In this document: positions 9,678-63,136 of the stretch, in pieces
Layout of the letters: each line of letters starts with the position of its first letter
Numbering within the stretch: the first letter of the stretch is position 1
IMG/VR virus record: IMGVR_UViG_3300045988_166199
Location: 9,605 to 73,604 of that record
From: a virus
Lineage: Duplodnaviria > Heunggongvirae > Uroviricota > Caudoviricetes
Length of the DNA stretch: 64,000 bases
Strand: one strand, 5' to 3'
The notes under the pieces: generated by a model
Databases searched by the model: none
The model's input: the letters and a program-made list of their open reading frames with translations, nothing else
What the model was told of the DNA's origin: nothing
Position numbers and translations under genes: made by a program

Positions 9678-10454
9678 AAATACAATAATAAGTATTTACT
9701 TACCTATCTTTTATGTATAAGATGACTTTGTTTTCGTTGAGACGCGACTGTTTGAACTTAAATACAAGTGCAAACGAAGAAGTCTATCTGGCAGTAGCCT
9801 AATAAGCCAAACACCAGCGAGGTCAGTTTCCAGCCTCGTTACCGAAATGGGACACACTGAGCGAGTGTGATTGCAGAACGCAGGAGGGAACATGAGAGTT
9901 CCCTCCGATGAAGTAACAGAATGGGCGGTCAGTATATTTTCAACTCATATACGACTCCCGGATTCTTAGCCAATGACCGCCCATCCTGTTACGTCATTTT
10001 GTTCAATTATGTCGTTTATACTGGGTTAAAAAGCGGCGACGTAGCCCGGCTGGTATGGTTAGCCAGCACACAACGTTGAGGCCATTACATTTTTATCAAT
10101 TCTAAGGTTCTATTCACAGAGATACCGGCGAGCGTTGATATGTAACATGTTGGGCAAACATTCAATCGGAGTAGTGGCCTCAACGTTGTGAAGACAGGAT
10201 TGTTGTATAGGTTTAACCACTGTTGCCATTAGTGCCTGTTTTCACAACAAATGATTCCATACATCACATTGTATAAATTACAAAGTAGGTGCTGTCCTCA
10301 GAAACATCATCTACTTAAAGATTTTGCCTTCTATTGAGCGAAGTCGAAAACGTCTGGCACTAACGGAAAGTGCCAGTAGCGGTGTGTTTCCTGGCAGAAA
10401 CTAACACCGCCGCGATTGGCACTGTTGAGTAATAAATACTGGCAGTGCTGAATT

Positions 10455-10529
10455 GATGGTGTAGCTCAGCGGTAGAGCAGTTGGCTGTTAACCAACTGGT
10501 CGGTGGTTCGAATCCACCCACCATCGCCA
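10455..10529 (+). tRNA. tRNA-Asn (anticodon GTT)
   Basis: Cloverleaf: acceptor gatggtg/caccatc, anticodon loop ctGTTaa, T-loop ggttcgaatcc, 3' CCA; sequence differs from host asn tRNAs. Confidence 0.8.
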
Positions 10530-10534
10530 ATTTA

Positions 10535-10621
10535 GGGGAGTTAGTCCGTAGAGGTAGCGGGACAGACTGTAAATCTACTGTCATTGCGACTCGGGTGGTT
10601 CGACTCCATCACTCCCCACCA
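10535..10621 (+). tRNA. tRNA-Tyr (anticodon GTA)
   Basis: Acceptor ggggagt/actcccc, anticodon loop ctGTAaa, long variable arm, ggttcgactcc T-loop, CCA. Confidence 0.8.
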
Positions 10622-10625
10622 AATT

Positions 10626-10701
10626 GCCGGTTTAGCTCAGTTGGTAGAGCGCCTGCCTTGTAAGCAGGATGTCAGCGGTTCGAGTCCGTTAACCGGCACC
10701 A
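10626..10701 (+). tRNA. tRNA-Thr (anticodon TGT)
   Basis: Acceptor gccggtt/aaccggc, D-arm tagctcagttggtagagc, anticodon loop ctTGTaa, T-loop ggttcgagtcc, CCA. Confidence 0.75.
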
Positions 10702-10925
10702 ATACAACGATAAGATCATTACGGTTAATCGTCGTTCATGTGCACAATGACTGGTCGAAAGGTAGTGATCTTACCGTTGTGGTGGATTCGCAGACTGATG
10801 CGATAGCTTTCTTGGATGTTAGGGAAATGCGGCCGCAAATCTTCCCTTTCGCGAGCGGTGATCGTCCGTAGTCCTAATTGGCTGCACCGTATGCCGGAGA
10901 TTCAGTACCGGCCACCACAACGGCC

Positions 10926-11012
10926 GGAGAGTAGGGAGCATGGTGCTCAAGCGGTCTTGAAAATCGTCCCATTGTGCAAACGATGATGGTTCGATTCCAT
11001 TACTCTCCGCCA
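10926..11012 (+). tRNA. tRNA-like gene with long variable arm (possibly tRNA-Ser, anticodon TGA; atypical D-arm)
   Basis: Acceptor ggagagt/actctcc, T-loop ggttcgattcc, CCA end; anticodon stem weak and D-loop short, so isotype uncertain. Confidence 0.5.
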
Positions 11013-11167
11013 GACACAGCGTTGAGCGGTTTGGCCTTTTAATCAACTCGATTAAGACTCCGCTAACATAAACCAGACCGCTCAACGCTGTGATTGACAA
11101 TTACGGCAGACGTTCTTAACCATAGCTTGCTAACATCCTAGCAACACTTTTTTTCAGCGCAATATTC

Positions 11168-11190
11168 AAAGGGGCTTCGGCCCCTTTTCT
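11168..11190. terminator. hairpin terminator (bidirectional)
   Basis: aaaggggc ttcg gccccttttct. Confidence 0.5.
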
Positions 11191-12402
11191 TCAAAAAAGT
11201 TTTATAAATTCATAATTCTGGTCAATTAAGGATTCAATACACACCATGCAAAAATCTACATCGTTAAAATCAGGTGTGTAATATTCATCCTCATAACATT
11301 CATTTAGACCTTCAATCAATTTTTCTTTAAAAACTCCCCACGTTTCAATATGAACCATTTCCATATAAGGCGCATGTGTATGTACTTGCAATACATCCCA
11401 GGTGTCTATAACCTCGATCCGCGGCTTGCAATTAATTTTTTCTAAATATGCCCTCCCAGAATTGTAAATTTTCGACATTGATGCCCCAAAACCTGATGGT
11501 TGGTAATGAGTGTAAATGTCATAAATTTTTTGTCCTATTCTAGGGAGTTGAGAAGCATTGGATATTTGTGGCGAATGAAAGTATCGCTCTATGGAAGAAA
11601 ACGCAGAAACATTAACTAGAGTAATCGTATATGGTGCTAAAGTTCTCTCGTTCAAATTTCTACATAAAATAGCAAACCCATGGCTATTAGTCTTTTCACC
11701 GTCTGAGGACATTTTTGCCATGCTGGCTTTAATAACATTCAATTTCGAATGTAAACGAGAAGTGGAAGTCGGTTGATTATACATTTCATCATCATACAAA
11801 CATATATGAAACCCGCCAAGATGACGAAATGAGAACTTGAGTGCTTCTTCCGCAATAACTAATTTATTAATATCTAAAGGAGTAAGTGATACGTTACCTT
11901 GTAAATCATAGCAAGGTTCTAAACATAGAAAGTTTTTCTTCTGCCACACGATCATATTAAAAATAAAGTGTCTAACCAAAGGTGGCCAGTCAGGTGATAT
12001 AAGTACATTGGTAATATCTCCATCAGACAAGTATGACAAGTAACTTTTTAGTTCCGCAGCATATGCCACTAGCTCAGTTCCAGCTTCCCTTGTTGGTGTT
12101 GAAAAATTTTTTAACTCAATAAGAACTAAGGATTCATTCTCTGTTGAATAAGCAACGACATCAGGTCTTAATATCTCAGATTTTGTTGCTGAGATATTCT
12201 CATCATCTGTCATTAAATGTAACAATGTTATGTTCTTTAAACAAAACTGATAACTCTCCTTAATTTTTTTCTCTTCGGGTCTTTTCGGATTAAATTCATT
12301 TAATTTATCAATATTGATGATTGAATTATATAATCCATCTTGATCAGATAATTTGTCAATTATCCAATTTTGCATTTCCTTTTCGCTTAAAAATATTGAC
12401 AC
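11191..12402 (-). CDS. hypothetical protein, downstream partner of Abi-like gene (403 aa; AbiGii-like size; possible PD..(D/E)xK-like motif)
   Basis: Co-directional, 26-bp spacing from upstream gene; AT-rich codon usage; segment ILRPDVVAYS...LVLIELK compatible with a nuclease-type D...ExK motif (inference only). Confidence 0.55.
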   Translation of the reverse strand: MSIFLSEKEMQNWIIDKLSDQDGLYNSIINIDKLNEFNPKRPEEKKIKESYQFCLKNITLLHLMTDDENISATKSEILRPDVVAYSTENESLVLIELKNFSTPTREAGTELVAYAAELKSYLSYLSDGDITNVLISPDWPPLVRHFIFNMIVWQKKNFLCLEPCYDLQGNVSLTPLDINKLVIAEEALKFSFRHLGGFHICLYDDEMYNQPTSTSRLHSKLNVIKASMAKMSSDGEKTNSHGFAILCRNLNERTLAPYTITLVNVSAFSSIERYFHSPQISNASQLPRIGQKIYDIYTHYQPSGFGASMSKIYNSGRAYLEKINCKPRIEVIDTWDVLQVHTHAPYMEMVHIETWGVFKEKLIEGLNECYEDEYYTPDFNDVDFCMVCIESLIDQNYEFIKLF

Positions 12403-12428
12403 TAATTAGGCTCCCGTTAAACCAAAAA

Positions 12429-13295
12429 TTAAAAATCTTGCTTTACTTTATCCATGGTCAGAATTTTGCTAATAATTGAAGATTCAAATCCATCTAAACC
12501 TGAGAGAAAGTTAATTAGCTTTTGGATATGTTGTTCTTTAGGTATAAGTATATATTTTATATCATTGAACTCAAAATCAATGCCAAACTTTGAAAATTTT
12601 GAGCTAATTTTTGCTTTGTCATCAGAAGTGATAACACGCTCCAAACTCAGACTAGGCCATAAATCACCAATAAAAGGAGCTGGCACATAACGCCACTCTT
12701 TCTCGTCTGCATATATATAATTCTCTATTGTTTTATTATCTTTTCGCTCTAGCTTGCCTCTGTAATTTTTCATATAACGCAGTAAATTATATAGATCAGA
12801 ATATTCTGCTTTCAATTTCTCAAACTCTATTCTGTTTTTGGTATCTAAATTTCCTCTAGCCTTCCAAAGCGGCACCAACTTATTTTTAATAAGTCGAATT
12901 CTGGCATTGTATTTAGAAAATATTTCACTACTCTTATTCATATATAGAACTGGGTGTAGACCTTTCTTTTCCGCCCAAGACTTAGTTAGCCCAAGACCGA
13001 ATTCTCCATATTTTCCGCTATGATCTCTGATTTGTGATAGTTTTATGTCACAAAACGATACCATTGGTACTGCAAACCTCCTGCGTCCCCCGACTCCTCT
13101 TATTTCCTCGCGAGCAAGAAATGGTTTAAAATATTTCTCAGCCAATATGCTATAGAAAGCATCTTCGTTTTTTGTAAAATGAAACAACGTGGTTGGATGA
13201 AGACTATAAACAGATTCAACATTCGCATCAGGATTTTCAAGGATAGTCATTTTACACCTTGTGGAAAGCCAGTTTAGTTCTGTAAATAGTATCAC
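12429..13295 (-). CDS. abortive-infection-like protein (AbiGi-like, 288 aa)
   Basis: Motifs LFHFT, VPMVSFCDIKLSQ, YGEFGLGL.K.WAEKKGL.PVLY resemble AbiGi-type proteins as recalled from memory; AT-rich; first gene of a two-gene operon. Confidence 0.55.
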   Translation of the reverse strand: MILFTELNWLSTRCKMTILENPDANVESVYSLHPTTLFHFTKNEDAFYSILAEKYFKPFLAREEIRGVGGRRRFAVPMVSFCDIKLSQIRDHSGKYGEFGLGLTKSWAEKKGLHPVLYMNKSSEIFSKYNARIRLIKNKLVPLWKARGNLDTKNRIEFEKLKAEYSDLYNLLRYMKNYRGKLERKDNKTIENYIYADEKEWRYVPAPFIGDLWPSLSLERVITSDDKAKISSKFSKFGIDFEFNDIKYILIPKEQHIQKLINFLSGLDGFESSIISKILTMDKVKQDF

Positions 13296-13399
13296 ACGAC
13301 AGGCGGCTATTCTTCTATCAATAAATGATAGGTAAGCACTTACTTTTTACGCACGTTAACTGTATAGTTCTTTCGGATACTCACTTGAAAGGACTCAAT

Positions 13400-13543
13400 A
13401 TGGGAAATAAATGTAAACATGCGCGTCGCGCATCTCGTCAGGTGCAGAAGTCAAATCCATACATTCACGAGCACTACCACCTCAGCTCTTTCACTAACCG
13501 CTACACGTTCCCCAGCGAAGCGCATAACGAGGCAAAGCAATGA
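13400..13543 (+). CDS. small basic protein (about 47 aa; ORF track 13325..13543)
   Basis: Internal ATG start MGNKCKHARRASRQ; stop overlaps glutaredoxin start (ATGA). Confidence 0.3.
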   Translation: MGNKCKHARRASRQVQKSNPYIHEHYHLSSFTNRYTFPSEAHNEAKQ

Positions 13544-13785
13544 CGATCACTATCTATGGACGAGATAACTGCTCATACTGCAAACGTGCGGTCGAGCTGG
13601 CGAAGCAGCTTCACGGTCACGGTTTTGGCGATTACGAATACATCGATATTGTGTCTGCTGGGATAGACAAAGAGAAATTGAGCGCCCTGGTTGGCAAGCC
13701 GGTGGAGACCATACCGCAGGTGTTCGTAAATGGCGAATCTATCGGTGGCTATACGGAATTCGCCGCTCTGGTGAGTACATTATAA
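13540..13785 (+). CDS. glutaredoxin-like protein (NrdC/NrdH-type)
   Basis: CxxC active site CSYC near N-terminus, 81 aa thioredoxin-fold pattern, C-terminal GG.YTEF; followed by terminator. Confidence 0.8.
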   Translation: MTITIYGRDNCSYCKRAVELAKQLHGHGFGDYEYIDIVSAGIDKEKLSALVGKPVETIPQVFVNGESIGGYTEFAALVSTL

Positions 13786-13788
13786 TTA

Positions 13789-13811
13789 AGAGCCGCTTAG
13801 GCGGCTTTTTA
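13789..13811 (+). terminator. rho-independent terminator
   Basis: agccgc ttag gcggc ttttt. Confidence 0.7.
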
Positions 13812-13977
13812 CATGAAAGTGTGCGCTCAAATCAACTATATCTATGAAAAGGACAGTTATAAATATTAAAAATATCTAAAATCCCTTCCGATATATGAAT
13901 TATCAGATTAAAATTTCACACAATGTGCTTTTAATGAGTTATTATTTCACCTTTTGTTGCCTTTACAGTTTAGGTTT

Positions 13978-14967
13978 TCACGTCACGATTATTCTTTTAC
14001 CTTGTCTATCTTTAATCTCAGTCACATACCCTTTCAGTGCCTCTTCATTTAGTAACAGAGCCTCTAATTTCATATCACCAATGATAATGGAGTATATAAG
14101 GTTATAATATGCACATAGTTTTTCATGTATTTCAGGAGAAATGTTTCTACCACGGTGATAATCCATTCCATAAACCGAATCAATTCCTGAGTTCACTATC
14201 TTCATCTGAATTTCAAAAAAATCATTATTTAAATCAAAGTAAACAATAGGGACCTCATATCTTCTGCTAGAAAAATCCATTGGTGATAGATAGTTAAGAC
14301 CATTTGCACTGACCTTCACTTGAATTCCAGCCTGTATACCTGAATTCGACGTTGGAGCAGAAATAAGTAATTGAGAAAGTGGGTCTCGTTTGTCTATCCA
14401 CACAATGTCCCGTTGAGTATCATTAGGTTGATATTTAGTAGGATAGTTAATTTTCGTATAGTTGAGTCCAGTCCCAACAGCTTTATAATTAGACAAACTA
14501 TCTGTGAAAGGGGTATATCTCTTTGCTAATAATGCCCAGTTTTCATTTTGTTTCGCGTTTTTTTCACATTCTTCAACAATGAGTGCTTCCGCAATTTTAC
14601 CTAATATTCTCATAGTTGTTTTATGGGGATCTAGTTCGATAATGATGTTTGACTTGATCACTCCTTCTTCATTAATACCAACAAGACCTAACTCTTTATC
14701 CATGAGTTCAAATAAATTTTCCCCATGCTCAATTGCTAACAAAGCTGAAGGTCGTGATAATAATGAAGAGTTATTCCAATCTCCGAGGGAGATATCCAGA
14801 CCTAAATCAATACCTTTAGTCGTCACTACTAGCTGAGGTTTGGGAGGCGTAGCCCCTAATAACTCAGATAGCGTGTTGACTTCCGGTGTCTCTTTTATCA
14901 TTTTTCTTATCCTGTTGCAGCGATCGCATGACAATACTATAAAACCAGCCATTTTCAAGTAAATCAA
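13978..14967 (-). CDS. hypothetical protein (329 aa ORF; likely start at internal Met MIKETPEV with AGGA RBS)
   Basis: Long AT-rich ORF between glutaredoxin and integrase; no confident domain. Confidence 0.55.
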   Translation of the reverse strand: MIYLKMAGFIVLSCDRCNRIRKMIKETPEVNTLSELLGATPPKPQLVVTTKGIDLGLDISLGDWNNSSLLSRPSALLAIEHGENLFELMDKELGLVGINEEGVIKSNIIIELDPHKTTMRILGKIAEALIVEECEKNAKQNENWALLAKRYTPFTDSLSNYKAVGTGLNYTKINYPTKYQPNDTQRDIVWIDKRDPLSQLLISAPTSNSGIQAGIQVKVSANGLNYLSPMDFSSRRYEVPIVYFDLNNDFFEIQMKIVNSGIDSVYGMDYHRGRNISPEIHEKLCAYYNLIYSIIIGDMKLEALLLNEEALKGYVTEIKDRQGKRIIVT

Positions 14968-15044
14968 TTACCTTTTAGGTGATGAAGATAAAAGTGAAGC
15001 CAACCCCTCCGTTCGAAAAGATAGATTCAAAAAAATCGCCCCCC

Positions 15045-15077
15045 AATGATTCCATACCTACTATGTATGGAATCATT
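15045..15077. promoter_or_regulatory. perfect 12-bp inverted repeat with 9-bp spacer upstream of integrase (candidate recombinase core site or operator)
   Basis: aatgattccata cctactatg tatggaatcatt; left arm also occurs as direct repeats at 9237 and 10250. Confidence 0.5.
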
Positions 15078-15175
15078 ACTGAAAATGAGTTACTTTTACT
15101 CTTGATCCTATAAGAATCTATGCCTAATATACTGTTTACTTATACAGTGCATCGGCGTAACTCGGTGATTGTCAT

Positions 15176-16279
15176 ATGAAAAATAGCTTTGACAGAGCAC
15201 GCGCTGCGGAGAACACCTCAAAAGAGGCGATTGAGTATCTCGAAAGAGCATCTCAAATGCAGGCCGTTATGATCTCCCAGGTCAGCAATGACATGAGATT
15301 CTCGGACGCATTCATGTTATTCACTCGCTTATCTCTGCTGATAACAAGACGTCGGCCAGAGATCGCTGTTCATTGTATTTTGATACATGTTTTGCCGCAC
15401 ATTGCCGATGTAAAAGTAAGTGATATTAATAGGTTCATGGTGAACCAACTGGTCAACCCACTAATACTGGATGGCAAAATTGTTATGGGTCGCCGCGTTT
15501 TCTCTCTGATGAAGCAGTTCCTCAGCTGGTGCGCCTTCCAGGGGATGATCGACGTGTCACCGTTAAACGATATGTCACTTAACAAAGTTGCCGGTGGCGC
15601 AAAGCCCACACCTCGCGAGCGGAAGCTGACCGACGCAGAGGTATGGGTGTTCTGGAATATATGGGACTACTTCAATGTGTGTGCTGGTACAAAATGGGCG
15701 GCCAGGCTATGTCTTGTATCCGCAAGACGACCTGACGAAGTACTGCGGGCTAAAAAAAGTGAGTTCAATCTTAAGCGTGGGGTTTGGAATCAAGGCAAGA
15801 GGAACAAATCTGCCCGTGAGCATTCTCTGCCTTTAAGCTCATTAATGCGCACATGTATTGAAGAGTTGTTCGAATATGGTAAAGACAGCCAGTGGCTCGT
15901 GCCTTCGAATAAAAAAATCGGGAAAGACCTTCCTATGTCTAAAGTGGCAATAGCCCAGGCATTACGTCGTATTCTGGAACGACCAGAACTGATGGAGCTT
16001 GAGCCATTTACACCCCGAGATTTGCGCCGTACTGCGCGTAGTTACTTCCCAGCATTAGGCATAAGCCAGGAGGTATCACGTAAAATCATGAACCACAGTC
16101 TTGAGGGGATAGATCGGGTCTACGACCGGCACGATTATATGGACGAGATGCGAGACGCCTTAGAAAGTTTCTCGACGTACATCGCATCAATCGTAGAGCA
16201 ACCGGATTTAGACGAAATTGACCACAAATTTAAGGGAGATCGTCTATCAACAGAGCTTATTCGTGTAAATTTTTCATAG
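15176..16279 (+). CDS. tyrosine-type site-specific integrase
   Basis: C-terminal catalytic motifs: R in LVSARRPDE, RDLRRTARS box II, NHS...RVYDRHDY with tyrosine nucleophile; lacks a recognisable P4-type N-terminal arm-binding domain. Confidence 0.8.
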   Translation: MKNSFDRARAAENTSKEAIEYLERASQMQAVMISQVSNDMRFSDAFMLFTRLSLLITRRRPEIAVHCILIHVLPHIADVKVSDINRFMVNQLVNPLILDGKIVMGRRVFSLMKQFLSWCAFQGMIDVSPLNDMSLNKVAGGAKPTPRERKLTDAEVWVFWNIWDYFNVCAGTKWAARLCLVSARRPDEVLRAKKSEFNLKRGVWNQGKRNKSAREHSLPLSSLMRTCIEELFEYGKDSQWLVPSNKKIGKDLPMSKVAIAQALRRILERPELMELEPFTPRDLRRTARSYFPALGISQEVSRKIMNHSLEGIDRVYDRHDYMDEMRDALESFSTYIASIVEQPDLDEIDHKFKGDRLSTELIRVNFS

Positions 16280-16666
16280 AGACTTTATGGCCTCAACAAC
16301 CTTTTGTGATGCGCCTTTCTCTTTACCGAATCGCTCGTTATATGCAGCAAGAACCTGTTTTTCGTCCTCGTTAAGAGGAGCAGTGCCTTCTTTGTATAAA
16401 AATGCTGCGAGTTCGGGTTGGCGTTCTTCCAGCACCATCATCATAAGACGACTTGGCTCAATACCCAGTGCCAGCGCCAGCGGACGAACCTTATCGATAG
16501 GCAAAGGAATTTTGCCGCTTTTAATTAAAGAAAGGTTGTTGGCGTTTTTATACCCAATTGTTTTGGCTATCTGGGCCTGGCTCATAGGTGAGGATTCAAT
16601 CAACCCTGCGATAAAAGCAGCGTAGCGACTTTCTATAAATTCAATCTTGTTATCAGACATGGTCAC
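16274..16666 (-). CDS. XRE-family helix-turn-helix transcriptional regulator
   Basis: HTH motif SQAQIAKTIGYKNANNLSLIKSGK; convergent with and overlapping integrase 3' end. Confidence 0.7.
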   Translation of the reverse strand: MTMSDNKIEFIESRYAAFIAGLIESSPMSQAQIAKTIGYKNANNLSLIKSGKIPLPIDKVRPLALALGIEPSRLMMMVLEERQPELAAFLYKEGTAPLNEDEKQVLAAYNERFGKEKGASQKVVEAIKSL

Positions 16667-32120: not shown

Positions 32121-32657
32121 GTCACCGCTGACAGCATACACAATCAACTGCCGCTGATAGCATATCGAGAGTCTATCTCACCGCTCACAGCATACTTTAC
32201 TCGATTTTTTACCGCTGACAGCATACTTAAGACATTGCATGAATAATGTGTACCGGTATGGGTATAACCAGAACAAAATTACCGCTGGCAGCATACGAAG
32301 GTCTGACATATGCCATTAATTACCGCTGATAGCATATCCAAACAAAAATTCCTCAATAAAACACCGCTGACAGCATACGTTCTATCAGGGGGCAGCAGGC
32401 AATAAATACCTTTCACTACAAGTAATCAACGCAATGGGAATAGAATGTTAGTGAGCGCAAACCTATATGGAATGCACTCTTCGAGGTTAGTAACCACTGG
32501 GGAGGTTTAAAAGAGCATTGAGTGGTGATAGATGATTTACCGCTCACAGCATACGTTTATCTCACTATACCGCTGGTAGCATATCTTTAACCGTTCACAG
32601 CATACTTTTCAGAAAAATAGCCGCTGATAGCATACATTTCACCGCTGACAGCATATC
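32121..32657. repeat. iteron array downstream of rep (about 12 copies of ACCGCTGACAGCATAC-like 16-19 bp repeat in two clusters; incA-like)
   Basis: Copies start near 32124, 32151, 32180, 32211, 32281, 32322, 32363, 32539, 32569, 32590, 32620, 32641. Confidence 0.85.
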
Positions 32658-33750
32658 AAAGTAGTTTGAGACTATTGGAAAGGATCTCAATCATCTTGAT
32701 ATTTTCAGGCGTCAAATTCTGCGAAAGTTCGGTTATCTTATTGATAATGTTCTGTTTGGCATCAATTTCCCCGGCTTTCTCATCTAGTTTTTTGGGTTCG
32801 ATGTCTTCAGGTTTTGGCGGTGCGACTTTGAGTTTTGGATTGCGGCTGTGAATCTGGATATAGATCGACCGCCCTCGCTTAATCTCGCTGTATTCGAGAT
32901 AACCCAAATCTTGGAGAGCTTTTAAGCCGTTGCGTATAGTCTGATTCTGCGAGCTGACATTCCTGCTACTCAAATTGAGTCGCGCACGCAATCGAGCAAG
33001 CGATACCGGCGCAGGCTTGGTTGGAAGACTTTCGATGAAGGTGTACAGAGCCTGTGCTGTTTCTTTGCGTGGTAGCTTATTGATAACCTTTAACTGCAAA
33101 AGAACCTTATGGTCAAAGCGATATAGTTCGGCCAGCTTCGGTTCTGCATAGAACACCACCGTATCTTTCTGCTCGTTGTAGTCCACGCTATTGATGAGGT
33201 GCACCATCAGAAGCGAGATCTTGTTAGAGCCGTCGACGTTCTTTTCTTCATACGTTCTCTGGAAAGACAGAGTTGTACGCATGATCTTCAAAAGACTGTT
33301 TGTAAGCCGGTCGCGGAGTGTTTTGCGGATCTGTGACGATGGATAGCCACAAAACTTCGCAAATTTCGTGATGCTTAACTCGACACGACCGTTAGGTTCG
33401 CCGTATTCTGCCAGCGAACGCACAACGCCCACCCACGTTTTGAAATCATGATCCATGTCCAGGCGAGGACCGGTTATCTTGATATCGGAATAGCCTTCAG
33501 AACGGGCTACTTCGAGCTGGACAAGCTCCTTTGAAGCATCGATCTCATTTGGCTTGTTACGTTTACTGTATTTTGTTCCCTTAAGCGTGGGGACGAACAA
33601 CCCCAGTCGCATCAACGCAATTGGTTGGACTGTATTGTTGCTATTAGGGACAAGTTCCCCTGTGTACAATTCAAGGGAACCTTCTTCAAAGTTGTCGAGA
33701 TTATCTTCTACTTCTTTGTTATTTTTACCTTTTTTATTTTTTGTGGACAT
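32656..33750 (-). CDS. plasmid-type replication initiator (RepA-like, iteron-binding)
   Basis: Gene flanked on both sides by iterons; start placed at internal Met MSTKNKKGK (RBS aaggtg); basic N-terminus; ORF track extends to 33870 across the upstream iterons. Confidence 0.75.
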   Translation of the reverse strand: MSTKNKKGKNNKEVEDNLDNFEEGSLELYTGELVPNSNNTVQPIALMRLGLFVPTLKGTKYSKRNKPNEIDASKELVQLEVARSEGYSDIKITGPRLDMDHDFKTWVGVVRSLAEYGEPNGRVELSITKFAKFCGYPSSQIRKTLRDRLTNSLLKIMRTTLSFQRTYEEKNVDGSNKISLLMVHLINSVDYNEQKDTVVFYAEPKLAELYRFDHKVLLQLKVINKLPRKETAQALYTFIESLPTKPAPVSLARLRARLNLSSRNVSSQNQTIRNGLKALQDLGYLEYSEIKRGRSIYIQIHSRNPKLKVAPPKPEDIEPKKLDEKAGEIDAKQNIINKITELSQNLTPENIKMIEILSNSLKLL

Positions 33751-33770
33751 GTGGACACCTTTGTCATTCA

Positions 33771-33872
33771 ACCGCTGACAGCATACTTGATTTGCCGCTG
33801 GCAGCATACCAAAAACAGTTGGTAGCATACGGCGAACCGTTGACAGACTATCAATTACCGCTGGCAGCATAC
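33771..33872. repeat. origin-proximal iterons (3 good and 2 degenerate copies)
   Basis: accgctgacagcatac (33771), gccgctggcagcatac (33794), accgctggcagcatac (33857), plus degenerate copies. Confidence 0.8.
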
Positions 33873-45375: not shown

Positions 45376-45789
45376 ATGGCAAGAGGTATGTATGTCTTAT
45401 GCGAAATTGAAGGTGTGCTGGCAAATGCCAGCCATCGTAAATCAGTATCTGACGCGGATGCAGGCCAGCTCATTGCCGGTGATGAACTCATTTTCCCCAC
45501 CAGCCGTATGTTGCGTGGTTTTGCTCGCTCAGGGGCTGAAGTGGTGCTTATCAGTAGCCGCTCTGAAACTCTTGAAGCGCCAACTAAACGATGGCTGAAA
45601 GATTTTGGCGTTGATTATGACTGGCTTCATCTCGTACCAAATGGCACCAGTTATGAGAAGCATATTAAGCGCACATTAGCGGAGCATAAAGGCGATCTGC
45701 TTATCGCTGCGCTGGTGCACGATCCTCGACTCCGTGCCGCTTTAGCCGACTCTCACCATCGACCGGTCATCTATGAGGTGAGCAAATGA
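45376..45789 (+). CDS. hypothetical protein (137 aa), translationally coupled to thyA and DHFR genes
   Basis: ATG 2 bp after thyA stop; stop overlaps DHFR start. Confidence 0.45.
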   Translation: MARGMYVLCEIEGVLANASHRKSVSDADAGQLIAGDELIFPTSRMLRGFARSGAEVVLISSRSETLEAPTKRWLKDFGVDYDWLHLVPNGTSYEKHIKRTLAEHKGDLLIAALVHDPRLRAALADSHHRPVIYEVSK

Positions 45790-46262
45790 AGATGATCGCT
45801 GCTGTTGGCCGTAACTATGAGATCGGCATAGCGAATGAACTCCCCTGGCGTTGTTCTACCGATCTGAAGCTATTTAAGAGACTCACCAAAAACGCCACTG
45901 TCGTTATGGGGCGTAAAACGATGGAAAGTCTCAAACGCCCTCTTCCAGAGCGTCATAACCTCGTTTTGACGCGCTCTCATGGCTTTGTACCAAATGGATT
46001 CTACCCTGCTGGTGTGGATGATGTGTTGCGATTACCAGAGCCTGTGTGGGTGATTGGCGGGGAACAAATTTACTCGCTATTCATGCCGCATGTTGAAGAG
46101 ATTTGGCTCTCCCACATCGGCGTTGATGTACCAAACGCCGATGCATTCTTCCCGGCAAGCATGATGCGTAACTTAGGCTTTGTGCCTGTTGAAACAGCTT
46201 ATACCCAACGAGCCAGCGAGGAAGAGCCTGGCTTTTCGCAGATCGTATACAGAAGGTCGTAA
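45786..46262 (+). CDS. dihydrofolate reductase
   Basis: MIAAVGRNYEIGIANELPW...VVMGRKTMESL matches the DHFR N-terminal fingerprint; 158 aa. Confidence 0.9.
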   Translation: MKMIAAVGRNYEIGIANELPWRCSTDLKLFKRLTKNATVVMGRKTMESLKRPLPERHNLVLTRSHGFVPNGFYPAGVDDVLRLPEPVWVIGGEQIYSLFMPHVEEIWLSHIGVDVPNADAFFPASMMRNLGFVPVETAYTQRASEEEPGFSQIVYRRS

Positions 46263-53655: not shown

Positions 53656-54132
53656 ATGAATACAGCCCTTTCCATCATCGACGATGCCAGCTCAAACACG
53701 GCTATCGACTATCGTCAGGAAATGAATGTCATCCACGAAATCGTGGCCGAGTGCGAGAAAGAGATCGCCTTCATGTATCAGGTACACGACTTCGTTTATG
53801 GCGACGAACGCCACAACATGATTAATCGCCTGCTGAGACTAAACCATCGACCAGATGAAGATCGCTCACGTTTAAATCGAGGTTGGTTGGATAAAGTCGA
53901 TCTGGAATGGGTGAAACAGAATATTTGGGCCGAGTACTGGAGGAAGGTCACGGACATGACTAACGTTCTGCTGATTATGCCAGATTCCCGTCGCGACGAG
54001 TGGCGTGAGCAGTTTATCGAGGGCAAGCAGGAAACGATCAAGACTGACAGAACTGGCTATCAGATGAAGGTTAAAGAGTTCGTTGGTGTACCTGAGTTCA
54101 AAGTGGATACAGACATCCCTACGATGGCTTGA
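53656..54132 (+). CDS. hypothetical protein (158 aa)
   Basis: ORF; convergent with hsdR. Confidence 0.5.
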   Translation: MNTALSIIDDASSNTAIDYRQEMNVIHEIVAECEKEIAFMYQVHDFVYGDERHNMINRLLRLNHRPDEDRSRLNRGWLDKVDLEWVKQNIWAEYWRKVTDMTNVLLIMPDSRRDEWREQFIEGKQETIKTDRTGYQMKVKEFVGVPEFKVDTDIPTMA

Positions 54133-54190
54133 TCTGACAGCTATCTGCAATTTGCACAGATATCTGCCAGATCTGGTTCAGATTAATACA

Positions 54191-57100
54191 CTATATCTGC
54201 CCACCTACTCCTTTGAACTTTTCAATAAACGTGACGATTTTCTGGAAAACGGTCTGTTTTTTCGTTTTATATTGCGGGTTTAACGGACTAAGTTTTGGTA
54301 ATGTCTCGTTTAATTCTGTGCCATTTTCGGTGGCGTATTCGCGTTTTAAAGACGTGCGAATATAGCGTTTTGCTGCATCTTCATTGAGATTTTCTTCTTT
54401 TATCAATGCTTCTGCTTCACGTTGCTGTTCGCGTTTAGCAAACGTAAAGAATGCCTCAATGATACTGGCTTTGTCTGGTAAATCATCCAGGTTCGTTTGC
54501 TGAATAAAATCGACCACCAGGCCCTCTTTCGCCCGGTTCCCCAGGCTTGAACGAATTAAGCGTTTGACCTCTTCGATCATTTCGCCCTTGCCTTTATTTT
54601 GTCTGTTGTGTTCGAAAATCAGTCCAAGGATATAATCCAGGTTTATTTCCTGAGACTTCAGCAAATCGACCTCAAAAACCACGTCATCCCAGTCGGTGGT
54701 TGATTTTTCTTTTTTGTCAGCTTCTTTCTCACGGCGCTGCCAGTCGCGAATATCGTTATAGGCAGAACGATAATCCTGGAGCTTGCGTTCAGCAGGGAGA
54801 CGAATCGTTTGCAATTCAGCGAACTTTTCATCATCCACATAATGTTCTGCTTTGAATTTTTCTACTGCAACAGGATCGCTAAGATCGATTTGTTGCAGGG
54901 CTTTCAGCGTGGCAAATTCATCATAGTTTTGCAGGATGTTCTCGGTACGCAGGTATTCACCAAACAGTTTAACGAAGTCTTTCTTCTCTTTTTCACTTTC
55001 AATACTGGCAGGGTCAGGGAACCGTTGTTCCAGTTCTGCAACTACTGCCATAAAGCCGCGCTTAGCTTCACCAGTAGCAGCATCAGTAAAGCCTTCCATA
55101 TACTCTGCATAACTCTTTTCTAACACTACATTTTTGGTGTTTTTGTCACCAAACAGCGTTATGGCATCGATGGTTGAGCGTTCCAGATCGCGGAAAGTGA
55201 CGATATTACCGAAGGTTTTAGTAGCGTCATAAATGCGGTTGGTGCGGGAAAATGCCTGCATCAGGCCGTGAAAACGCAAGTTTTTATCGACGAATAGCGT
55301 GTTCAATGTTGGAGCGTCGAAGCCGGTTAAAAACATCCCCACGACAATTAATAGATCGATATCCTGATTTTTAACCCGTTGGGCTAAATCACGATAGTAG
55401 TTCTGAAAACCCTTGCTATCAGTGCTGAAATTCATTTGAAAATGGTCGTTATACTCACGAATTGCAGCGTCCAGAAACTCTTTAGCACTGCTGTCCATTG
55501 CACTGGTATCAAAAGATTCATCGGATATTTCACCAATGGCATTTTGTTCTTCATTAGCGGCAAAGGAGAAGATTGTCGCAACACGCAGTGGTTTATAGGT
55601 AGCAGATTTATTAGCTGCTTCCTCTTGTAACCGTTTAAACGTCGCGTAATAGGCTTTCGCGGCATCCACGCTGCTCACTGCCAACATAGCATTAAAACCT
55701 TTTGAGCCAGGGAAGGTACGGTGGGTTTTCTGGCGGAAATTATTCAGAATATATTGCGTGATTTCCTGAATACGCATGGGATGAAGAAACGCCTGCTGAT
55801 TTTCAGCCGCACTCAGTTTTTTCTCGTCAGTTTCTGTCTCTAAAGACTTAAACTGTGGCCGCACATCGTTGTAGTCCACCTTGAATTTGAGCACTTTTTC
55901 GTCACGAATCGCATCGGTAATTACATACGAATGCAATTCACGACCAAATACGCTGGCGGTTGTTTCTGAGCCTAAGGCGTTTTCCGGGAAAATAGGGGTG
56001 CCGGTAAAACCAAACTGATAATAGCGTTTGAATTTCTTCTTCAGGTTTTTCTGCGCTTCTCCAAACTGGCTGCGGTGGCATTCATCAAATATAAACACCA
56101 CTTGCTGATTATATACAGGCAGGTCGCTTTCTGCTTTCATCAGGTTATTGAGTTTCTGAATAGTAGTGACGATAATTTTGTTATCGTCCTTATCCAGATT
56201 TCGTTTAAGGCCTGCGGTATTTTCCGAGCCGTTGACGCTGTCTGGCGAAAAACGCTGATATTCCTTCATGGTCTGGTAATCGAGGTCTTTCCTGTCGACC
56301 ACGAAGAAGACTTTATCAATAAAGTCCAGCTCTGTTGCCAGACGCGCGGCTTTAAAGCTGGTCAGGGTTTTACCGGAACCCGTGGTGTGCCAGATATACC
56401 CACCGCTTTCCGGTTTTGACCAGTTCTTCGCTGTAAAGGAGCTCTTAATTTTCCACAGAATGCGCTCGGTGGCAGCAATCTGGTACGGTCGCATTACCAG
56501 TAGCGTCTGACTGCTGTCAAAAACGCTGTAGTTCACCAGAACATTAAGCAGAGTATGTTTCTGGAAAAAGGTAGCGGTAAAGTCTTTGAGGTCTTTAATC
56601 AGTGTATTGTCTGATTTAGCCCAGTTCATGGTGAAGTCAAAACTGTTTTTATCGCGCTTTGTGGTGTTGGCAAAATAACGGGTATCAGTGCCGTTGGAAA
56701 TGACGAACAGCTGCAGATACTTAAACAGGGAATTTTCGCTGTTAAAACTCTCTTTACTGTAACGATGTATCTGGTTGAAAGCCTCACGAATCGCCACCCC
56801 GCGTTTTTTTAGTTCGATTTGCACCAGCGGTAAACCATTAACCAGGATCGTGACGTCATAACGGTTAGCATGAGAACCCGTCTGTTCAAACTGCTGGATA
56901 ATCTGCACCTTATTGCGCATGAGATTCTTTTTATCTATCAAATAGATGTTCTCAAGACGCTCGTCATCAAAAATAAAGTCGCAAATATAGTCGATATGGA
57001 TTTTACGGGTCTTATCCAGAATGCCATCACTCGGGTTGTCCAGATACTGCTCCGTGAAACGCCGCCACTCGCTGTCATTAAACACCACACCATTGAGGTT

Positions 57101-57307
57101 CTGAAGCTGTTCCCGAACGTTGGCCAGCATCGCTGACTGTGATTTTACGGATATAAATTCATAGCCCTGATTTCGCAGGTCCTGAATCAGTTCCCGTTCC
57201 AGGTCCGATTCGCTCTGATAGCTGTCGCCTGTTTGCTCAGCTTTGATGTACTTATCAAGAACGATAAAGTTATTGGATTCAGCAATGGTGTGTGTCTGAT
57301 GAGTCAT
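54191..57307 (-). CDS. hsdR: type I restriction enzyme R subunit (HsdR)
   Basis: Helicase motifs with GSGKT-type Walker A and DECHRSQ box; 1038 aa; last gene of hsdM-hsdS-hsdR operon. Confidence 0.9.
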
Positions 57308-57428
57308 AGCGCATCCTTTGTGCCGTCTGGCAAGGGCCGGAAGGGAGTTAAGGGTGAGTTCCGGCGCGTAAAAAATAGTCTATATACTGACCGGATGTTA
57401 AGGAGGCCCGGTTGGTAGCAATGGTCAA

Positions 57429-58562
57429 TTATTTACTGACAGTTTCAGGTTTTGGGAAACTGAACAGTAAATCACGATAGTACTCGTATTGTTTCTGGCG
57501 TAACTCGATTTCACGCGGAAGACCTTCGGTGATGGAGTTGGTAAGGGTGTCGAATTTATCGAGTATAGAAACAATACGGTCTTGTTCGGTGATAGGAGGT
57601 ATAGGTATATCATAGGTTTCAAACTCTTTCACTCGGACATGAGGCACACCCGCACCTTTTTTCATTGCATGGATGTGCTCTTGTTTATTTTGTAGCACGT
57701 GGTATATAAACTTTGGTTTTACAATTTTTAAGTCGGAATGAACACTAAAGGCATCGGTTAAAAATATTGGCTGATCCCAGAAGCTGACATATCCTGCATA
57801 GGCACCAGATCTGGCTATAACGATTGTTTCACCTTGTCTGTTGCTCTCGCTATGAAAATAAGTAGGAATTGGTCCATTGGCAACTACTGGTATTTCTCCT
57901 GGTGTTGTCTGTTTTTGGGTAATTGCCGTTCCTCGCTTAAACTGAGCCACTTCCCCCAAAGTCTTCCACTCAACCTCACCCTCTTTAAAACTCAACAACT
58001 GGTCACGATAGTAGTTGTACTGTTTTTTACGCATGTTAAGCTCAGCGGTAAGCTCAGCGGTAAGTGCAGTAAATTTATCCAGAATTCGAACGATTTCAGA
58101 CTGGATGGCAAGGGATTTTTCCGGGTTTTCTGGGCAGGGGATGGGGATAAGTAGTTTATTAACTACGATAGCATCAAGTGTTGGAATGCCCGCAACTCTC
58201 ACCTTTGATTTCAGCAAACTTTGATAACCAATCAGTGCGAAATATAAAAACCTATTATTTAATAGCTCATTGTGCTCTAAGCAAAAGCATCCATCAGAGG
58301 ACCAGAAGTCAACGGTGCTATAGCCAACAGTACCTGCTGAAGCGCCAACATTGATAATCATAACGGTATTAGCCGGACGATTCGACTTATTGTAATATCC
58401 TAACGGTTCTAAGCCGCCATGAAATACCGGGAATTTTTCTTCTGCTGAAAGCAGATTTTTAGTTAGCCTTTTTCCCCGCAAGACACTCGTGACATCTCCA
58501 AGGGCTTTCCATTCCACCTCTGTCCCATCTAGCAGTTTTTCCAGATAATTTAACTCGCTCAT
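57429..58562 (-). CDS. hsdS: type I restriction-modification specificity subunit (HsdS)
   Basis: Two target-recognition halves separated by conserved helical spacers; start overlaps hsdM stop. Confidence 0.8.
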
Positions 58563-60121
58563 CCCTGCACCTCGTCACCTTCAATCTCTGCCACAATTGA
58601 GTCGATATCTTTACGCAACTGGTCGATTTTGCTGACCGTAGTTTTCAGTTCTGCATTCAGCTCAGCAATATTGATTATTTCGCGGTTATCTTTCGCTTCC
58701 ACATAGCTGCTCACTGACAGGTTATAGTCATTCGCTACAATGGTTTCAAACGCGACAGATTTTGCCAGATGAGCAACATCTTCCTTGCTGGCAAATACCT
58801 GCATAATCTGGTTGATATGGGCATCGGTCAGGATATTGTTGTTAGTCTCTTTTTTGAACAGTTCGCTGGCGTCAATAAACTGAACGTTGGTATCCGTTTT
58901 ATGTTTAGACAGCACCAGAATATTGACGGCAATGGTGGTGCCAAAGAACAGGTTCGGTGCCAGTGAAATCACGGTTTCGACATAGTTATTGTCAACCAGA
59001 TACTGACGGATTTTCTGCTCCGCGCCGCCACGGTAAAAAATGCCCGGGAAGCAGACAATCGCAGCACGACCTTTGGCAGAAAGATAGTTCAGCGCATGTA
59101 ATACAAACGCAAAGTCAGCTTTGGATTTGGGGGCCAGAACGCCAGCCGGGGCAAAACGTTCATCGTTAATCAGCGTCGGGTCATCGCTGCCAATCCATTT
59201 CACCGAATACGGCGGGTTAGAAACGATGGCATCAAACGGTTTTTCATCTCTGAAGTGCGGCTCAGTCAGCGTATTGCCCAGCTTGATATCAAACTTGTCG
59301 TAGTTGATGTTGTGCAAAAACATGTTCATACGCGCCAGGTTATAGGTCGTATGGTTGATCTCCTGACCAAAAAAACCTTCTTCGATGATATGGTCATCAA
59401 ACTGTTTTTTAGCCTGCAACAACAGCGAACCGGAGCCTGCTGCCGGGTCGTAGATTTTGTTAACGTGGGTCTGCCCGTGCATAGCCAGTTGTGCAATCAG
59501 CTTAGAGACGTGCTGCGGTGTAAAGAACTCGCCGCCTGACTTACCGGCATTTGCCGCATAGTTAGAGATCAGGAACTCATAGGCATCACCGAACAGGTCA
59601 ATCTGATGTTCGTTGAAGTCACCAAGTTTTAACCCTTCAACCCCTTTCAGAACCGCAGCCAGGCGGGCATTTTTATCTTTAACGGTGTTACCCAGGCGGT
59701 TACTGGTGGTATCGAAATCAGCAAACAAACCTTTGATGTCAGCTTCTGAAGGATAACCGTAAGCAGAACTTTCGATAGCAACGAAGATGCTGTTTAAATC
59801 TGCATTCAGTCTGTCATTAGTATTTGCTTTCGCAGCTACGTTGCAGAAAAGCTGACTGGGGTAGATGAAGTAGCCTTTGGTTTTGATGGCATCGTCTTTA
59901 ATGTCATCAGTAATTACGCTGTCATCCAGTTTCGCATAACAGATACTGTCATCCCCAGCTTCAATATAGCTGGAAAAATTTTCGCTGATAAAACGGTAGA
60001 AAAGTGCGCCCAGAACGTATTGCTTAAAATCCCATCCATCGACCGAACCCCTGACATCGTTAGCAATTTGCCAGATTTGACGATGAAGCTCTGCACGTTG
60101 TTGAATACTTGTCATTTTCAT
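58559..60121 (-). CDS. hsdM: type I restriction-modification DNA methyltransferase subunit (HsdM)
   Basis: N6-adenine MTase motif IVSNPPYS and SAM-binding DPAAGSG; 520 aa. Confidence 0.9.
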
Positions 60122-61247
60122 CCACTTATTTCAGGCTTATGTAATTGGCGGTGATTCTACAGCAACTTGGATGCTTTAGCAGTTCGGACATTAGGCAACG
60201 AATGACCTAATTAGAGCTTTTTGGAAAAGCGGTATTGTCGGTGCGATGATAGCTATGTTTGGGTGCGCGATGGTGCAATACAATGACGGTGAAAAGGTAA
60301 GCATCCAGTCTGATGGCTGGTATGGGCTGGATAGCCTGCAAAAAACCGCAGATAAAGCCTGTCAGCAATATGGAAAGTCTAAAGCCGTATATCAGCATAG
60401 CGCGAACGCTAATCCACATCTCGCGCCCGGCACGGGCGTTCAGAACACTATTTGGAAATGCGAACCATAACGCAGGTTGGCTTTTTACATCTTGGGCCGA
60501 ATACTGATTCCGCGCTAAGTTGTTTGTGCGGAAGTGACACTGTGGAGCTTAGAAATAGTAAATACTGGTGGGCAACAAATTGAGCCTTCACACGCTCACC
60601 AGCACACACAAAAAATGGTTAAACAGCAAGGGAGTTAATATCTCATCGCGACATTAAATAAGCCAGCGCACGCCTCTGTTTATCACTGACTTGAAAAACC
60701 ATATCAGAACCACGATGAAGACAATCGCCAGCACTTGGCTAAGAACAGGCGCATTTAAAAATGCACTTAGAAACTGAAAAAATACAATCATCAAGGTAAT
60801 CCTCGTCTAATGTAAAGCTGTGTGCTCTCACGTTGACGTAGAAACCCAACCTCTATATAGTTGGATTCGGTGAAAGAAAGTCGTTAACGTGAACTTACGG
60901 CACATGTTTTCGGTATAAAAATCAGGGAACTGTGAATTCCTTGATGTAGTTGGGGCCTGTAATGCAGGCCCTATCTATTAATGTCATGATTACATCTCAA
61001 ATTTTCTCCTTATCATTATTATTTAATAAAATTCAATTAATATAATATCCATTTCCTGTGTGTGCAAACACAGTATGAGGAAAATGGCCCCGTTGCAAGT
61101 GCATAACTTTGTGGATAACTCTGAAGGCGAATTTACATTTCGGCGCACCGCAAGCCAGATAAGCTGTGCGCAAAAAGCAATGGGGTGAGAAAAAAACTTT
61201 GAAGATATTGCGGCGACTAAATAATAGCCGTTATTCAATTATTCTGG

Positions 61248-61511
61248 ATGGGATTTAATATGAACGAATGGAACATAGCAGCCAAAAGCCAGGAAGAAAG
61301 GAATAAAGTTAACGTTGACCTGGCTGCCAGGGGGGTTGCCTACAAAGAGCGATTGAACATACCCGTCATAGCGGAACAGGTAGCCCGTGAGCAACCTGAG
61401 AACCTGCGCACCTATTTCATGGAACGGCTACGGCACTACCGGCAGTTAAGCCTCCTGCTGCCAAAAGGAAACGATCCGGTATATCAGAAAGAAGATATAG
61501 CCAAAAAATAA
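61248..61511 (+). CDS. hypothetical protein (87 aa)
   Basis: ORF upstream of UmuD'-like gene. Confidence 0.4.
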
Positions 61512-61609
61512 CGCGCCACCAGGCGAGCGCAAAGCATCGCGCTATTGCACACTTCAAGCATCTTTAATGTATACTGTATGGATAAACAGTACTCTGAGGT
61601 GAAAACGCT

Positions 61610-61999
61610 ATGGGCTTCCCTTCTCCTGCGGCGGATTATGCTGAGAGCCGTATTTCTCTTGATCAGCAGATAATTAGACATCCTTCAGCGACCTACTTCT
61701 TGAGGGCAGCTGATAGTCATCATCATGAGGGAATATTACAGGGTGCATTGCTGGTGGTCGATTCCTCACTTACCCCGGTTGATGGTTCTCTGCTTGTATG
61801 CGCTCTGGATGGGGAATATCGCGTAAAAAGATACCGGAAGTATCCACGTCAGCATCTGGAGGATTTAAGAACCGGTAAGAAGGAAGCATTGCCAAAGGAT
61901 GACGATGGATGCACGGGCAGCAATGCCGTGTTTGGTGTGATTACTCACATTATCAACGACGCAAGAAGTGGCGAGTTTGATGATTGTCCCGTGATGTAG
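61610..61999 (+). CDS. UmuD'-like protein (HumD-like, lacks the N-terminal autocleavage segment)
   Basis: Begins MGFPSPAADY, aligning with the post-cleavage N-terminus of UmuD (GFPSPAADY); Ser (ADSH) and Lys (RVKRY) dyad positions retained; no umuC follows. Confidence 0.75.
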   Translation: MGFPSPAADYAESRISLDQQIIRHPSATYFLRAADSHHHEGILQGALLVVDSSLTPVDGSLLVCALDGEYRVKRYRKYPRQHLEDLRTGKKEALPKDDDGCTGSNAVFGVITHIINDARSGEFDDCPVM

Positions 62000-62011
62000 G
62001 AGAACTGATTA

Positions 62012-62036
62012 GGCGGTGCAATGCACCGCCTTTTAT
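62012..62036. terminator. bidirectional hairpin terminator
   Basis: aggcggtgc aa tgcaccgcct tttat between convergent UmuD'-like gene and mrp. Confidence 0.7.
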
Positions 62037-63136
62037 CACACTGCGCGGAATGCGATCTCGCCAGGTATTACTTCGCCTTGCCAATACATTTGGGCAGCAA
62101 CGCGATCTGCGAGGTCACGATAAATAGCCGTAAATTCGCTATCTGGACGACTAATAACGGTTGGTGTTCCGTTATCCAGATCTTCACGAAGAGAGATATG
62201 AAGTGGCATTTGGCCTAACAACTGCGTGTTGTATTTCTCGGCCAGTTTCTGTGCGCCACCGGTGCCAAAAATTGGCTCGTGATGACCGCAGTTACTGCAA
62301 ATATGCACACTCATGTTTTCGACGATACCCAGTACCGGCACTTCGACTTTTTCGAACATCACAATGCCTTTCTTCGCATCGATCAGCGCGATGTCTTGCG
62401 GCGTAGTTACCACAACCGCACCAGTTACAGGAATGTTCTGCGCCAGCGTCAACTGAATATCACCAGTGCCCGGCGGCATATCGAGAACGAGATAGTCCAG
62501 ATCAGGCCATAGAGTTTCCTGCAACATCTGCATCAGCGCCTTGCTGGCCATCGGCCCACGCCACACCATTGCATTGTCGTCGGTGACCAGATAACCAATA
62601 GAGTTGGTTGCCAGGCCATGAGACATGATAGGTGCCATGTGAGTACCGTCCGGTGAGGTTGGACGTTGGTTTTCCGCGCCCAGCATGGTTGGAATTGATG
62701 GACCATAGATATCGGCATCCAAAATACCAACTTTCGCACCTTCAGCAGCCAACGCCAGTGCCAGGTTTACCGCCGTGGAGGATTTACCCACGCCGCCCTT
62801 GCCTGAGCTGACGGCGATAATGTTCTTAACGCCATTAATGCCTGGTTGGTTTTTGACGCGCTTAAGCGTGGCAATGTTGTACGACAGCTTCCAGTCAATA
62901 GCCTTTGCGCCAGTGATACGGAGCAGATCACCACTACATTGCTCTTTCAGGTCTTCAAAAGGCTTATTCCACACGAAAGGCATGATTAGTTCGACATGCA
63001 GTGTGTCATCCATCAACGCAACATGGTGTAACGCTTTAAGCGTAGTCAGGTTGTGTTTCAGGGTTGGGTGCTGAAAATTAGCCAGCGTACCGGCTACCAT
63101 TGCTCTCAGGGCATCCGGCGATTTGGACTCGCTCAT
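62036..63136 (-). CDS. apbC: Fe-S cluster carrier ATPase Mrp/ApbC
   Basis: Walker A SGKGGVGKSS, CxxC motif, near-identity to enterobacterial Mrp as recalled. Confidence 0.95.
   Translation of the reverse strand: MSESKSPDALRAMVAGTLANFQHPTLKHNLTTLKALHHVALMDDTLHVELIMPFVWNKPFEDLKEQCSGDLLRITGAKAIDWKLSYNIATLKRVKNQPGINGVKNIIAVSSGKGGVGKSSTAVNLALALAAEGAKVGILDADIYGPSIPTMLGAENQRPTSPDGTHMAPIMSHGLATNSIGYLVTDDNAMVWRGPMASKALMQMLQETLWPDLDYLVLDMPPGTGDIQLTLAQNIPVTGAVVVTTPQDIALIDAKKGIVMFEKVEVPVLGIVENMSVHICSNCGHHEPIFGTGGAQKLAEKYNTQLLGQMPLHISLREDLDNGTPTVISRPDSEFTAIYRDLADRVAAQMYWQGEVIPGEIAFRAV

Follow-up and report, generated by a model that had tools for sequence, protein, structure and literature searches.

A predicted type IC restriction-modification operon closely related to EcoR124I in an SSU5-like phage-plasmid of Escherichia coli

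The prototype of the type IC restriction-modification (RM) systems is EcoR124I, which is encoded by the conjugative plasmid R124 (EcoR124II comes from R124/3). In this family the spacer of the target is set by the TAEL repeats, two repeats corresponding to 6 bp (EcoR124I) and three repeats to 7 bp (EcoR124II, EcoDXXI and EcoprrI), and the reassortment of target recognition domains (TRDs) is a classical behaviour of type I systems (PMC3874165). Among SSU5-supergroup phage-plasmids, RM and PrrC systems have been reported from E. coli and Shigella, and reports of PrrC-type systems extend to P1-like phage-plasmids (bioRxiv 10.1101/2025.09.12.675607). The Klebsiella SSU5-like plasmid p2 was reported to contribute to phage defence and to affect plasmid uptake, and its RM system was inferred to be the cause (PMC8969562). 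A search of the phage-plasmid literature for hsd genes mentioned by name gave survey-level mentions only. We describe here a predicted type IC operon, hsdM-hsdS-hsdR, located at positions 54191-60121 of a 64,000-nucleotide stretch of the virus record IMGVR_UViG_3300045988_166199. This whole stretch (positions 9,605 to 73,604 of the record) is hereafter called the window.

We estimate at about 0.9 the probability that this locus encodes a functional type IC system, a close allele of EcoR124I, carried as an accessory cassette on a circular E. coli phage-plasmid of the SSU5-like type. The initial annotation of the window had placed a complete operon on the strand opposite to its neighbours, and the three genes are indeed all found on the minus strand (lengths in amino acids, aa):

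58559-60121, minus strand: hsdM, 520 aa, N6-adenine methyltransferase subunit (TIGR00497 and alignment to EcoR124 HsdM)
57429-58562, minus strand: hsdS, 377 aa, specificity subunit (two Methylase_S stretches)
54191-57307, minus strand: hsdR, 1038 aa (3117 bp), translocase-endonuclease subunit (TIGR00348 and EcoR124_C)

In the list of open reading frames (ORFs), hsdM and hsdS share 4 bp (ATGA) and a gap of 121 bp separates hsdS from hsdR. The three products were recovered by family models with E-values well outside the range of chance. HsdM matches the NCBIfam model TIGR00497 with 646 bits (cut-off 243) and HsdR matches TIGR00348 with 769 bits (cut-off 285); the domains HSDR_N, SWI2_SNF2, T1R_D3-like and EcoR124_C (243 bits) were matched in HsdR (Pfam/NCBIfam), and the Pfam model Methylase_S matches HsdS in two stretches (158 bits). 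The PADLOC models REase_I, MTase_I and Specificity_I all match products of the operon. The three separate subunits of a type I system are present, with an HsdM of the gamma class, an HsdS containing two TRDs and an HsdR that associates a nuclease with a superfamily 2 motor.

Residues 1-1038 of HsdR align without gap to residues 1-1038 of the EcoR124I HsdR (PDB 2w00; 2267.9 bits), and residues 1-519 of HsdM align in the same manner to residues 1-519 of the EcoR124 HsdM (7bst_D; 1150.6 bits). The identity is about 98-99% in both cases, and six substitutions were counted by eye on the printed alignment of HsdM. The residues checked in HsdR and HsdM are those of known importance in EcoR124I. In HsdR, the nuclease residues Asp151, Glu165 and Lys167 of the PD-(D/E)xK signature are kept, as are Gln179 and Tyr183 of the QxxxY motif, Lys220, the Walker A residue Lys313 and the DECH box (residues 408-411) of the motor. 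In HsdM, the S-adenosylmethionine motif AAGSG starts at residue 227 and the motif NPPY at residue 302. All the catalytic residues checked are present, and the search for frameshifts that had been proposed with the initial annotation revealed no frameshift or inactivating change in the alignments to the EcoR124I HsdR and HsdM. The operon is complete and intact, as had been claimed, and its ORF coordinates are exact. Judged from its sequence, it is an ordinary type I operon of the family IC (EcoR124-like), of a kind already known and so annotated in RefSeq.

The specificity subunit was split into domains by anchor alignment, and the corresponding segments of the gene are delimited by comparison with sibling alleles:

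HsdS residues 1-18, 139-203 and 326-377: N-terminal, central and C-terminal conserved regions
HsdS residues 19-138 and 204-325: TRD1 and TRD2
58149-58508, minus strand: variable segment of hsdS coding for TRD1 (DNA homology to sibling alleles ends at 58149 and restarts near 58509)
57588-57953, minus strand: variable segment of hsdS coding for TRD2 (DNA homology to sibling alleles ends at 57587 and restarts at 57945)
58038-58061, minus strand: TAEL-TAEL repeat, a perfect tandem pair of the 12-bp unit ACCGCTGAGCTT (HsdS residues 168-175)

The architecture is that of a type IC HsdS, which starts and ends within the conserved region D2 and contains TAEL repeats in the central helix D1. Compared with the EcoR124I HsdS (7bst_A, 404 aa), the N-terminal, central and C-terminal conserved regions are near-identical, whereas both TRDs are unrelated and the window HsdS is 27 aa shorter. 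The likeness to EcoR124I thus covers the lengths and sequences of HsdR and HsdM, the gene order hsdM-hsdS-hsdR, the overlap of hsdM and hsdS, the gap ahead of hsdR, the framework of HsdS and the presence of two TAEL repeats; on the basis of these sequences, subunit complementation and antibody cross-reactivity with EcoR124I are expected. The carriers differ, as EcoR124I is borne by a conjugative plasmid and the window operon by an SSU5-like phage-plasmid. From the two TAEL repeats a gap of 6 bp in the target is predicted, and since both TRDs are unrelated to those of EcoR124I, the target should not be GAA N6 RTCG. EcoprrI belongs to the same type IC family and differs by its embedded PrrC anticodon nuclease and by three TAEL repeats (PMC3874165) against two in the window. 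No ORF lies in the 121-bp gap between hsdS and hsdR nor between hsdM and hsdS, and a locus of the EcoprrI type was rejected in the absence of prrC from the operon.

The 377 aa of HsdS had also been read in the initial annotation as rather short and as a possible indication of an unusual target specificity. The first part of this remark stands: the subunit is shorter than that of EcoR124I and is the shortest of nine alleles sampled on this backbone (the others have 396-425 aa). The second part was not borne out. The 120 closest HsdS relatives range from 370 to 422 aa and 37 of them have 377 aa or less; TRD1 (120 aa) and TRD2 (122 aa) fall within the ranges of the relatives' TRDs (114-145 and 118-150 aa, respectively). 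Copies of TRD1 with 100% identity occur in at least 16 alleles whose TRD2 is unrelated, and copies of TRD2 with 100% identity occur in at least 35 alleles whose TRD1 is unrelated. Truncated type IC HsdS can act as homodimers on palindromic targets (PMC3874165), and together with the length of the subunit this would favour an aberrant or half-length HsdS with a palindromic or otherwise unusual target. With both TRDs, the three conserved regions and the two Methylase_S stretches present, and with each TRD recurring unchanged in many full-length alleles, such a subunit appears highly improbable. Because both TRDs are compact, common and complete modules, the short length by itself would be a sign neither of a defect nor of an unusual target.

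According to these comparisons, the only uncommon trait of the operon is the combination of its two TRDs. When the HsdS relatives were split by domain, TRD1 and TRD2 of the window allele were paired in only four sequences, and the exact hsdS is present in 4 of the 5426 complete E. coli genomes. The identical HsdS protein was found on 70 contigs, nearly all of those inspected having the size and context of a phage-plasmid. At one shared locus, nine E. coli SSU5-like plasmids display nine different HsdS (377-425 aa) that include eight types of TRD1 and seven types of TRD2, and one of these alleles has three TAEL repeats. The junctions of the cassette are identical in these sibling plasmids and the TRDs differ in every sampled case; the DNA homology breaks exactly at the TRD borders. 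Their hsdR (3117 bp) and hsdM (1557 bp in the RefSeq annotation) are full length in all nine.

The assignment of the carrier rests on the following genes of the window and on its colinearity with circular replicons:

32656-33870: gene of a Rep3-type initiator (family match)
62036-63136, minus strand: plasmid-borne apbC (NF008669, 759 bits), also present in Cyrano
about 63294 to the end of the window (64000): metG, divergent from apbC

Over the cassette region and the leading 25 kb of the window, the sequence is 99.9-100% identical to the closed circular 112.6-kb E. coli plasmids pEc2-51408 and NZ_CP073997, and the coordinates of the window wrap consistently round the circle of these plasmids. 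Outside the cassette, the region 40-64 kb is 97-98% identical to the Escherichia phages CMS-2020a, Cyrano and PhiR41_1 and 77% identical to the Salmonella phage SSU5. The assignment to the SSU5 group is based on colinearity and on the circular replicon, over the parts of the window that were searched, the structural genes lying outside the window. Cyrano is the phage-plasmid of strain LF82, reportedly maintained at approximately three copies and induced to virions (bioRxiv 10.1101/2022.10.28.514194).

The initial annotation had considered the operon as element-borne, which is confirmed by the match to circular phage-plasmids, and had positioned it at the edge of the element, beside a chromosomal flank, which has to be corrected. 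A chromosomal operon, or one that borders an integrated prophage, apbC-metG being the host flank, would be consistent with the score of apbC as an E. coli ApbC equivalog (759 bits), with the neighbourhood of apbC and metG in the E. coli chromosome and with the GC content that climbs to about 50% at 62-64 kb. In addition, part of the phage-plasmid segment adjoins the chromosomal metG locus on a 4.8-Mb contig of the draft genome L008, where hsdR is truncated, unlike the hsdR of the window. However, all 64 kb of the window run colinear with closed circular plasmids (108-113 kb) that themselves carry apbC-metG, and the pair is annotated both on the matching plasmids and in Cyrano. The apbC-metG of the window is approximately 88% identical to the chromosomal locus (5419 records), which is present in all 5426 complete E. 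coli genomes, whereas copies with at least 95% identity were detected in 216 records, with 222 matching places on plasmids. Because of this split and of the presence of the pair in Cyrano, we interpret apbC-metG as old and diverged cargo of the phage-plasmid rather than a host flank. The chromosomal placement, which we regard as very doubtful, was rejected on the colinearity with closed plasmids and on the same split. The corrected map is that of a free phage-plasmid. As cargo of such an element, a full-length methionyl-tRNA synthetase together with an Fe-S carrier is unusual.

The borders of the cassette are defined by the loss of homology to related phage-plasmids and by its extent in unrelated replicons:

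53656-54132, plus strand: remnant (158 codons) of a DUF4942 methylase gene (first 157 codons of that gene; 148 of 157 residues, 94%, identical to the N-terminus of Cyrano CYRAN_90, 561 aa)
54137-54190: junction segment of 54 bp, from the methylase remnant to the hsdR stop codon, specific to this phage-plasmid lineage
60122-60220, minus strand: region upstream of hsdM that travels with the cassette (the match to P1-like phages ends at 60220)

The homologies to SSU5 and to Cyrano both end at 54136, and the homology to Cyrano restarts at 61562. In the equivalent interval, SSU5 and Cyrano contain a full gene of 561 aa coding for a DUF4942 / DNA modification methylase and several Ea-type genes. The remnant in the window is annotated in RefSeq as a pseudogene devoid of the C-terminus, the 3' three-quarters of the gene being lost. 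The restriction cassette has taken the place of what was, putatively, a solitary methylase in the ancestral phage-plasmid. The left junction is identical in 48 plasmids of PLSDB. In unrelated replicons, the homology to the cassette extends from the hsdR stop codon (54191) to 87-99 bp upstream of hsdM. The flanks of the cassette show neither direct nor inverted repeats of any note, and no transposase gene is adjacent to the cassette in the window; a transposon-like mobility was abandoned for want of both. We propose that the cassette (approximately 6 kb, from 54191 to about 60220) arrived by recombination, which would have deleted most of the DUF4942 methylase gene and some Ea-type genes, and that the TRD-coding segments were afterwards repeatedly swapped with type IC alleles of the E. 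coli gene pool, which would have produced the uncommon pair of TRD1 and TRD2.

The same cassette was also found in P1-like phage-plasmids, in conjugative plasmids and in chromosomes. In the P1-like phages vB_EcoM-673R5 and phi456, the cassette is approximately 95% identical over 54191-60220, with TRDs that differ from those of the window; in one of these phages it is localized between pmgS and phd-doc. The Klebsiella SSU5-like phage vB_KpnS_p4727 has hsdMSR at the equivalent locus, where hsdR and hsdM are approximately 81% identical to those of the window. This divergence is similar to that of the backbone, and the locus is therefore long-standing in the SSU5-like group.

The layout of the genes, with an overlap of 4 bp and a gap of 121 bp, fits two transcription units, hsdM-hsdS and hsdR. 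The promoter of hsdM-hsdS is presumably comprised within 60122-60220, and a consensus scan pointed to one site ahead of hsdR:

57308-57428, minus strand: intergenic region of hsdS and hsdR, with the promoter-like elements TTAACA and TATTTT separated by 18 nucleotides (57401 to 57372)

This site is a candidate for a separate hsdR promoter, as described for EcoR124I. A scan for terminators in the operon region gave no excess over shuffled sequences.

Several observations weigh against a functional system of this kind. The number of promoter-like sites in the operon region does not exceed the shuffled expectation, and no consensus promoter was scored in the scan of the region upstream of hsdM. 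No recognition sequence was assigned, as PDB and a large protein search returned no solved or named relative sharing either TRD; the sole similarity of TRD1 in PDB is a weak one to Mycoplasma MG438, whose specificity is unknown, and the source names recovered with the HsdS relatives in the large protein search are generic. The cassette of vB_EcoM-673R5 (ON470615.2, locus 5000-11100) is annotated as the fragments HsdR1 and HsdR2 and a split hsdM, which reflects either a decay of the system or errors of sequencing or annotation, and the truncated hsdR of L008 is a further case, found in one draft genome. Such fragmented or truncated cassettes indicate that carriage does not always mean activity.

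The lack of strong consensus promoters and the degraded state of some homologous cassettes would also be consistent with a system whose sequence is intact but which mainly methylates, is addiction-like or is silent, without meaningful restriction, through poor expression of hsdR or weak assembly of the type IC HsdR. Restriction alleviation, possibly by inefficient assembly, is documented for EcoR124I (PMC3874165). This explanation seems improbable with regard to the 3117 bp of hsdR, which are free of frameshift and keep all the nuclease and motor residues. The full length of hsdR in all nine sampled sibling plasmids argues for purifying selection on restriction, and an ongoing diversification of TRDs is the expected product of selection on specificity.

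For the functional type IC system, which we favour, a mechanism can be proposed because the subunits are near-identical to those of EcoR124I and in view of the literature on that enzyme. HsdS and two HsdM would form a methyltransferase (M2S1) that methylates adenines at N6 in a bipartite asymmetric target, in which TRD1 would read one half-site and TRD2 the second, the 6-bp gap being set by the two TAEL repeats. The addition of HsdR would give an R2M2S1 enzyme expected to bind unmethylated targets on incoming DNA, to translocate DNA under ATP hydrolysis and to cut away from the target. As long as the element persists as a plasmid (lysogeny), both it and its host would be protected against competing phages and plasmids, and the DNA packaged from a carrier cell would be modified.

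The remaining features of interest in the window are a module upstream of hsdM and three regions that lie further from the cassette:

60597-61999: P1-type module composed of a small hydrophobic ORF, hot/theta and a humD-like gene, with 80% identity to the counterpart that stands ahead of phd-doc in the P1-like plasmid p853EC1
about 60654-60791, minus strand: strongly hydrophobic ORF of 45 aa (MIVFFQFLSAFLNAPVLSQVLAIVFIVVLIWFFKSVINRGVRWLI), upstream of the hot/theta gene
61248-61511, plus strand: hot, homologue of DNA polymerase III theta (Pfam DNA_pol3_theta, PF06440)
61610-61999, plus strand: humD-like S24 peptidase (Pfam Peptidase_S24)
10455-11012: four tRNA genes (Asn-GTT, Tyr-GTA, Thr-TGT, Ser-TGA), just upstream of the following low-GC block
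11191-14967, minus strand: low-GC block (GC 32-41%) that includes an AbiGi-family gene
12429-13295, minus strand: AbiGi-family gene (PADLOC 158 bits, Pfam PF10899)
45786-46262: dihydrofolate reductase gene, the trimethoprim-resistant DfrA51 in RefSeq (compare PMC12217456)
49106-49699: Dam-family N6-adenine methylase gene (PF05869), 3 kb downstream of the dihydrofolate reductase gene

The comparison with p853EC1 points to a theta-humD module shared between the P1-like and SSU5-like families of phage-plasmids. A hypothetical protein of 45 aa is annotated in p853EC1 at the matching relative position, and the hydrophobic ORF may encode a small membrane toxin or peptide. The low-GC block is probably the candidate abortive infection (Abi) cassette of the initial annotation, which is substantiated by the AbiGi-like gene. 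No family match was obtained for its downstream neighbour (11191-12402, 403 aa) nor for the ORF 13978-14967 (329 aa); the 403-aa partner may be AbiGii-like. The Dam methylase that had been attributed to the element was likewise recovered as the Dam-family gene, which together with the dihydrofolate reductase gene is contained in a conserved nucleotide-metabolism module common to SSU5.

The segment of L008 (GCA_019585305.1, VCYN01000001.1, locus 2563-16400) contains metG, apbC, humD, theta, hsdM, hsdS and the truncated hsdR, which is cut at window position 54565. It lies immediately next to WGR-domain, metG and apbC genes of the chromosome, and comparable regions of other chromosomes carry an annotated IS1-like insertion sequence (IS). 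The segment results either from an IS-associated integration of a phage-plasmid next to the metG of the chromosome or from a chimeric assembly.

Taken as a whole, the comparisons show that SSU5-like and P1-like phage-plasmids share an EcoR124-family system with conjugative plasmids and chromosomes, and that its TRDs are rapidly swapped as it circulates among them. This matters for predicting the entry of phages and plasmids into strains that harbour such elements; the practical value is small and no new mechanism is involved. A more tentative proposal, which we advance as a possibility less likely than not, is that the former DUF4942 locus of the E. coli and Klebsiella SSU5-like phage-plasmids may be a fixed landing site, where the type IC cassette would continually trade TRDs with the copies of chromosomes, conjugative plasmids and P1-like elements, and that the rare pair of TRDs with its 6-bp spacer may constitute a specificity not yet characterised. 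If this proves true, phage-plasmids would be infectious vehicles that both generate and spread new type I specificities.

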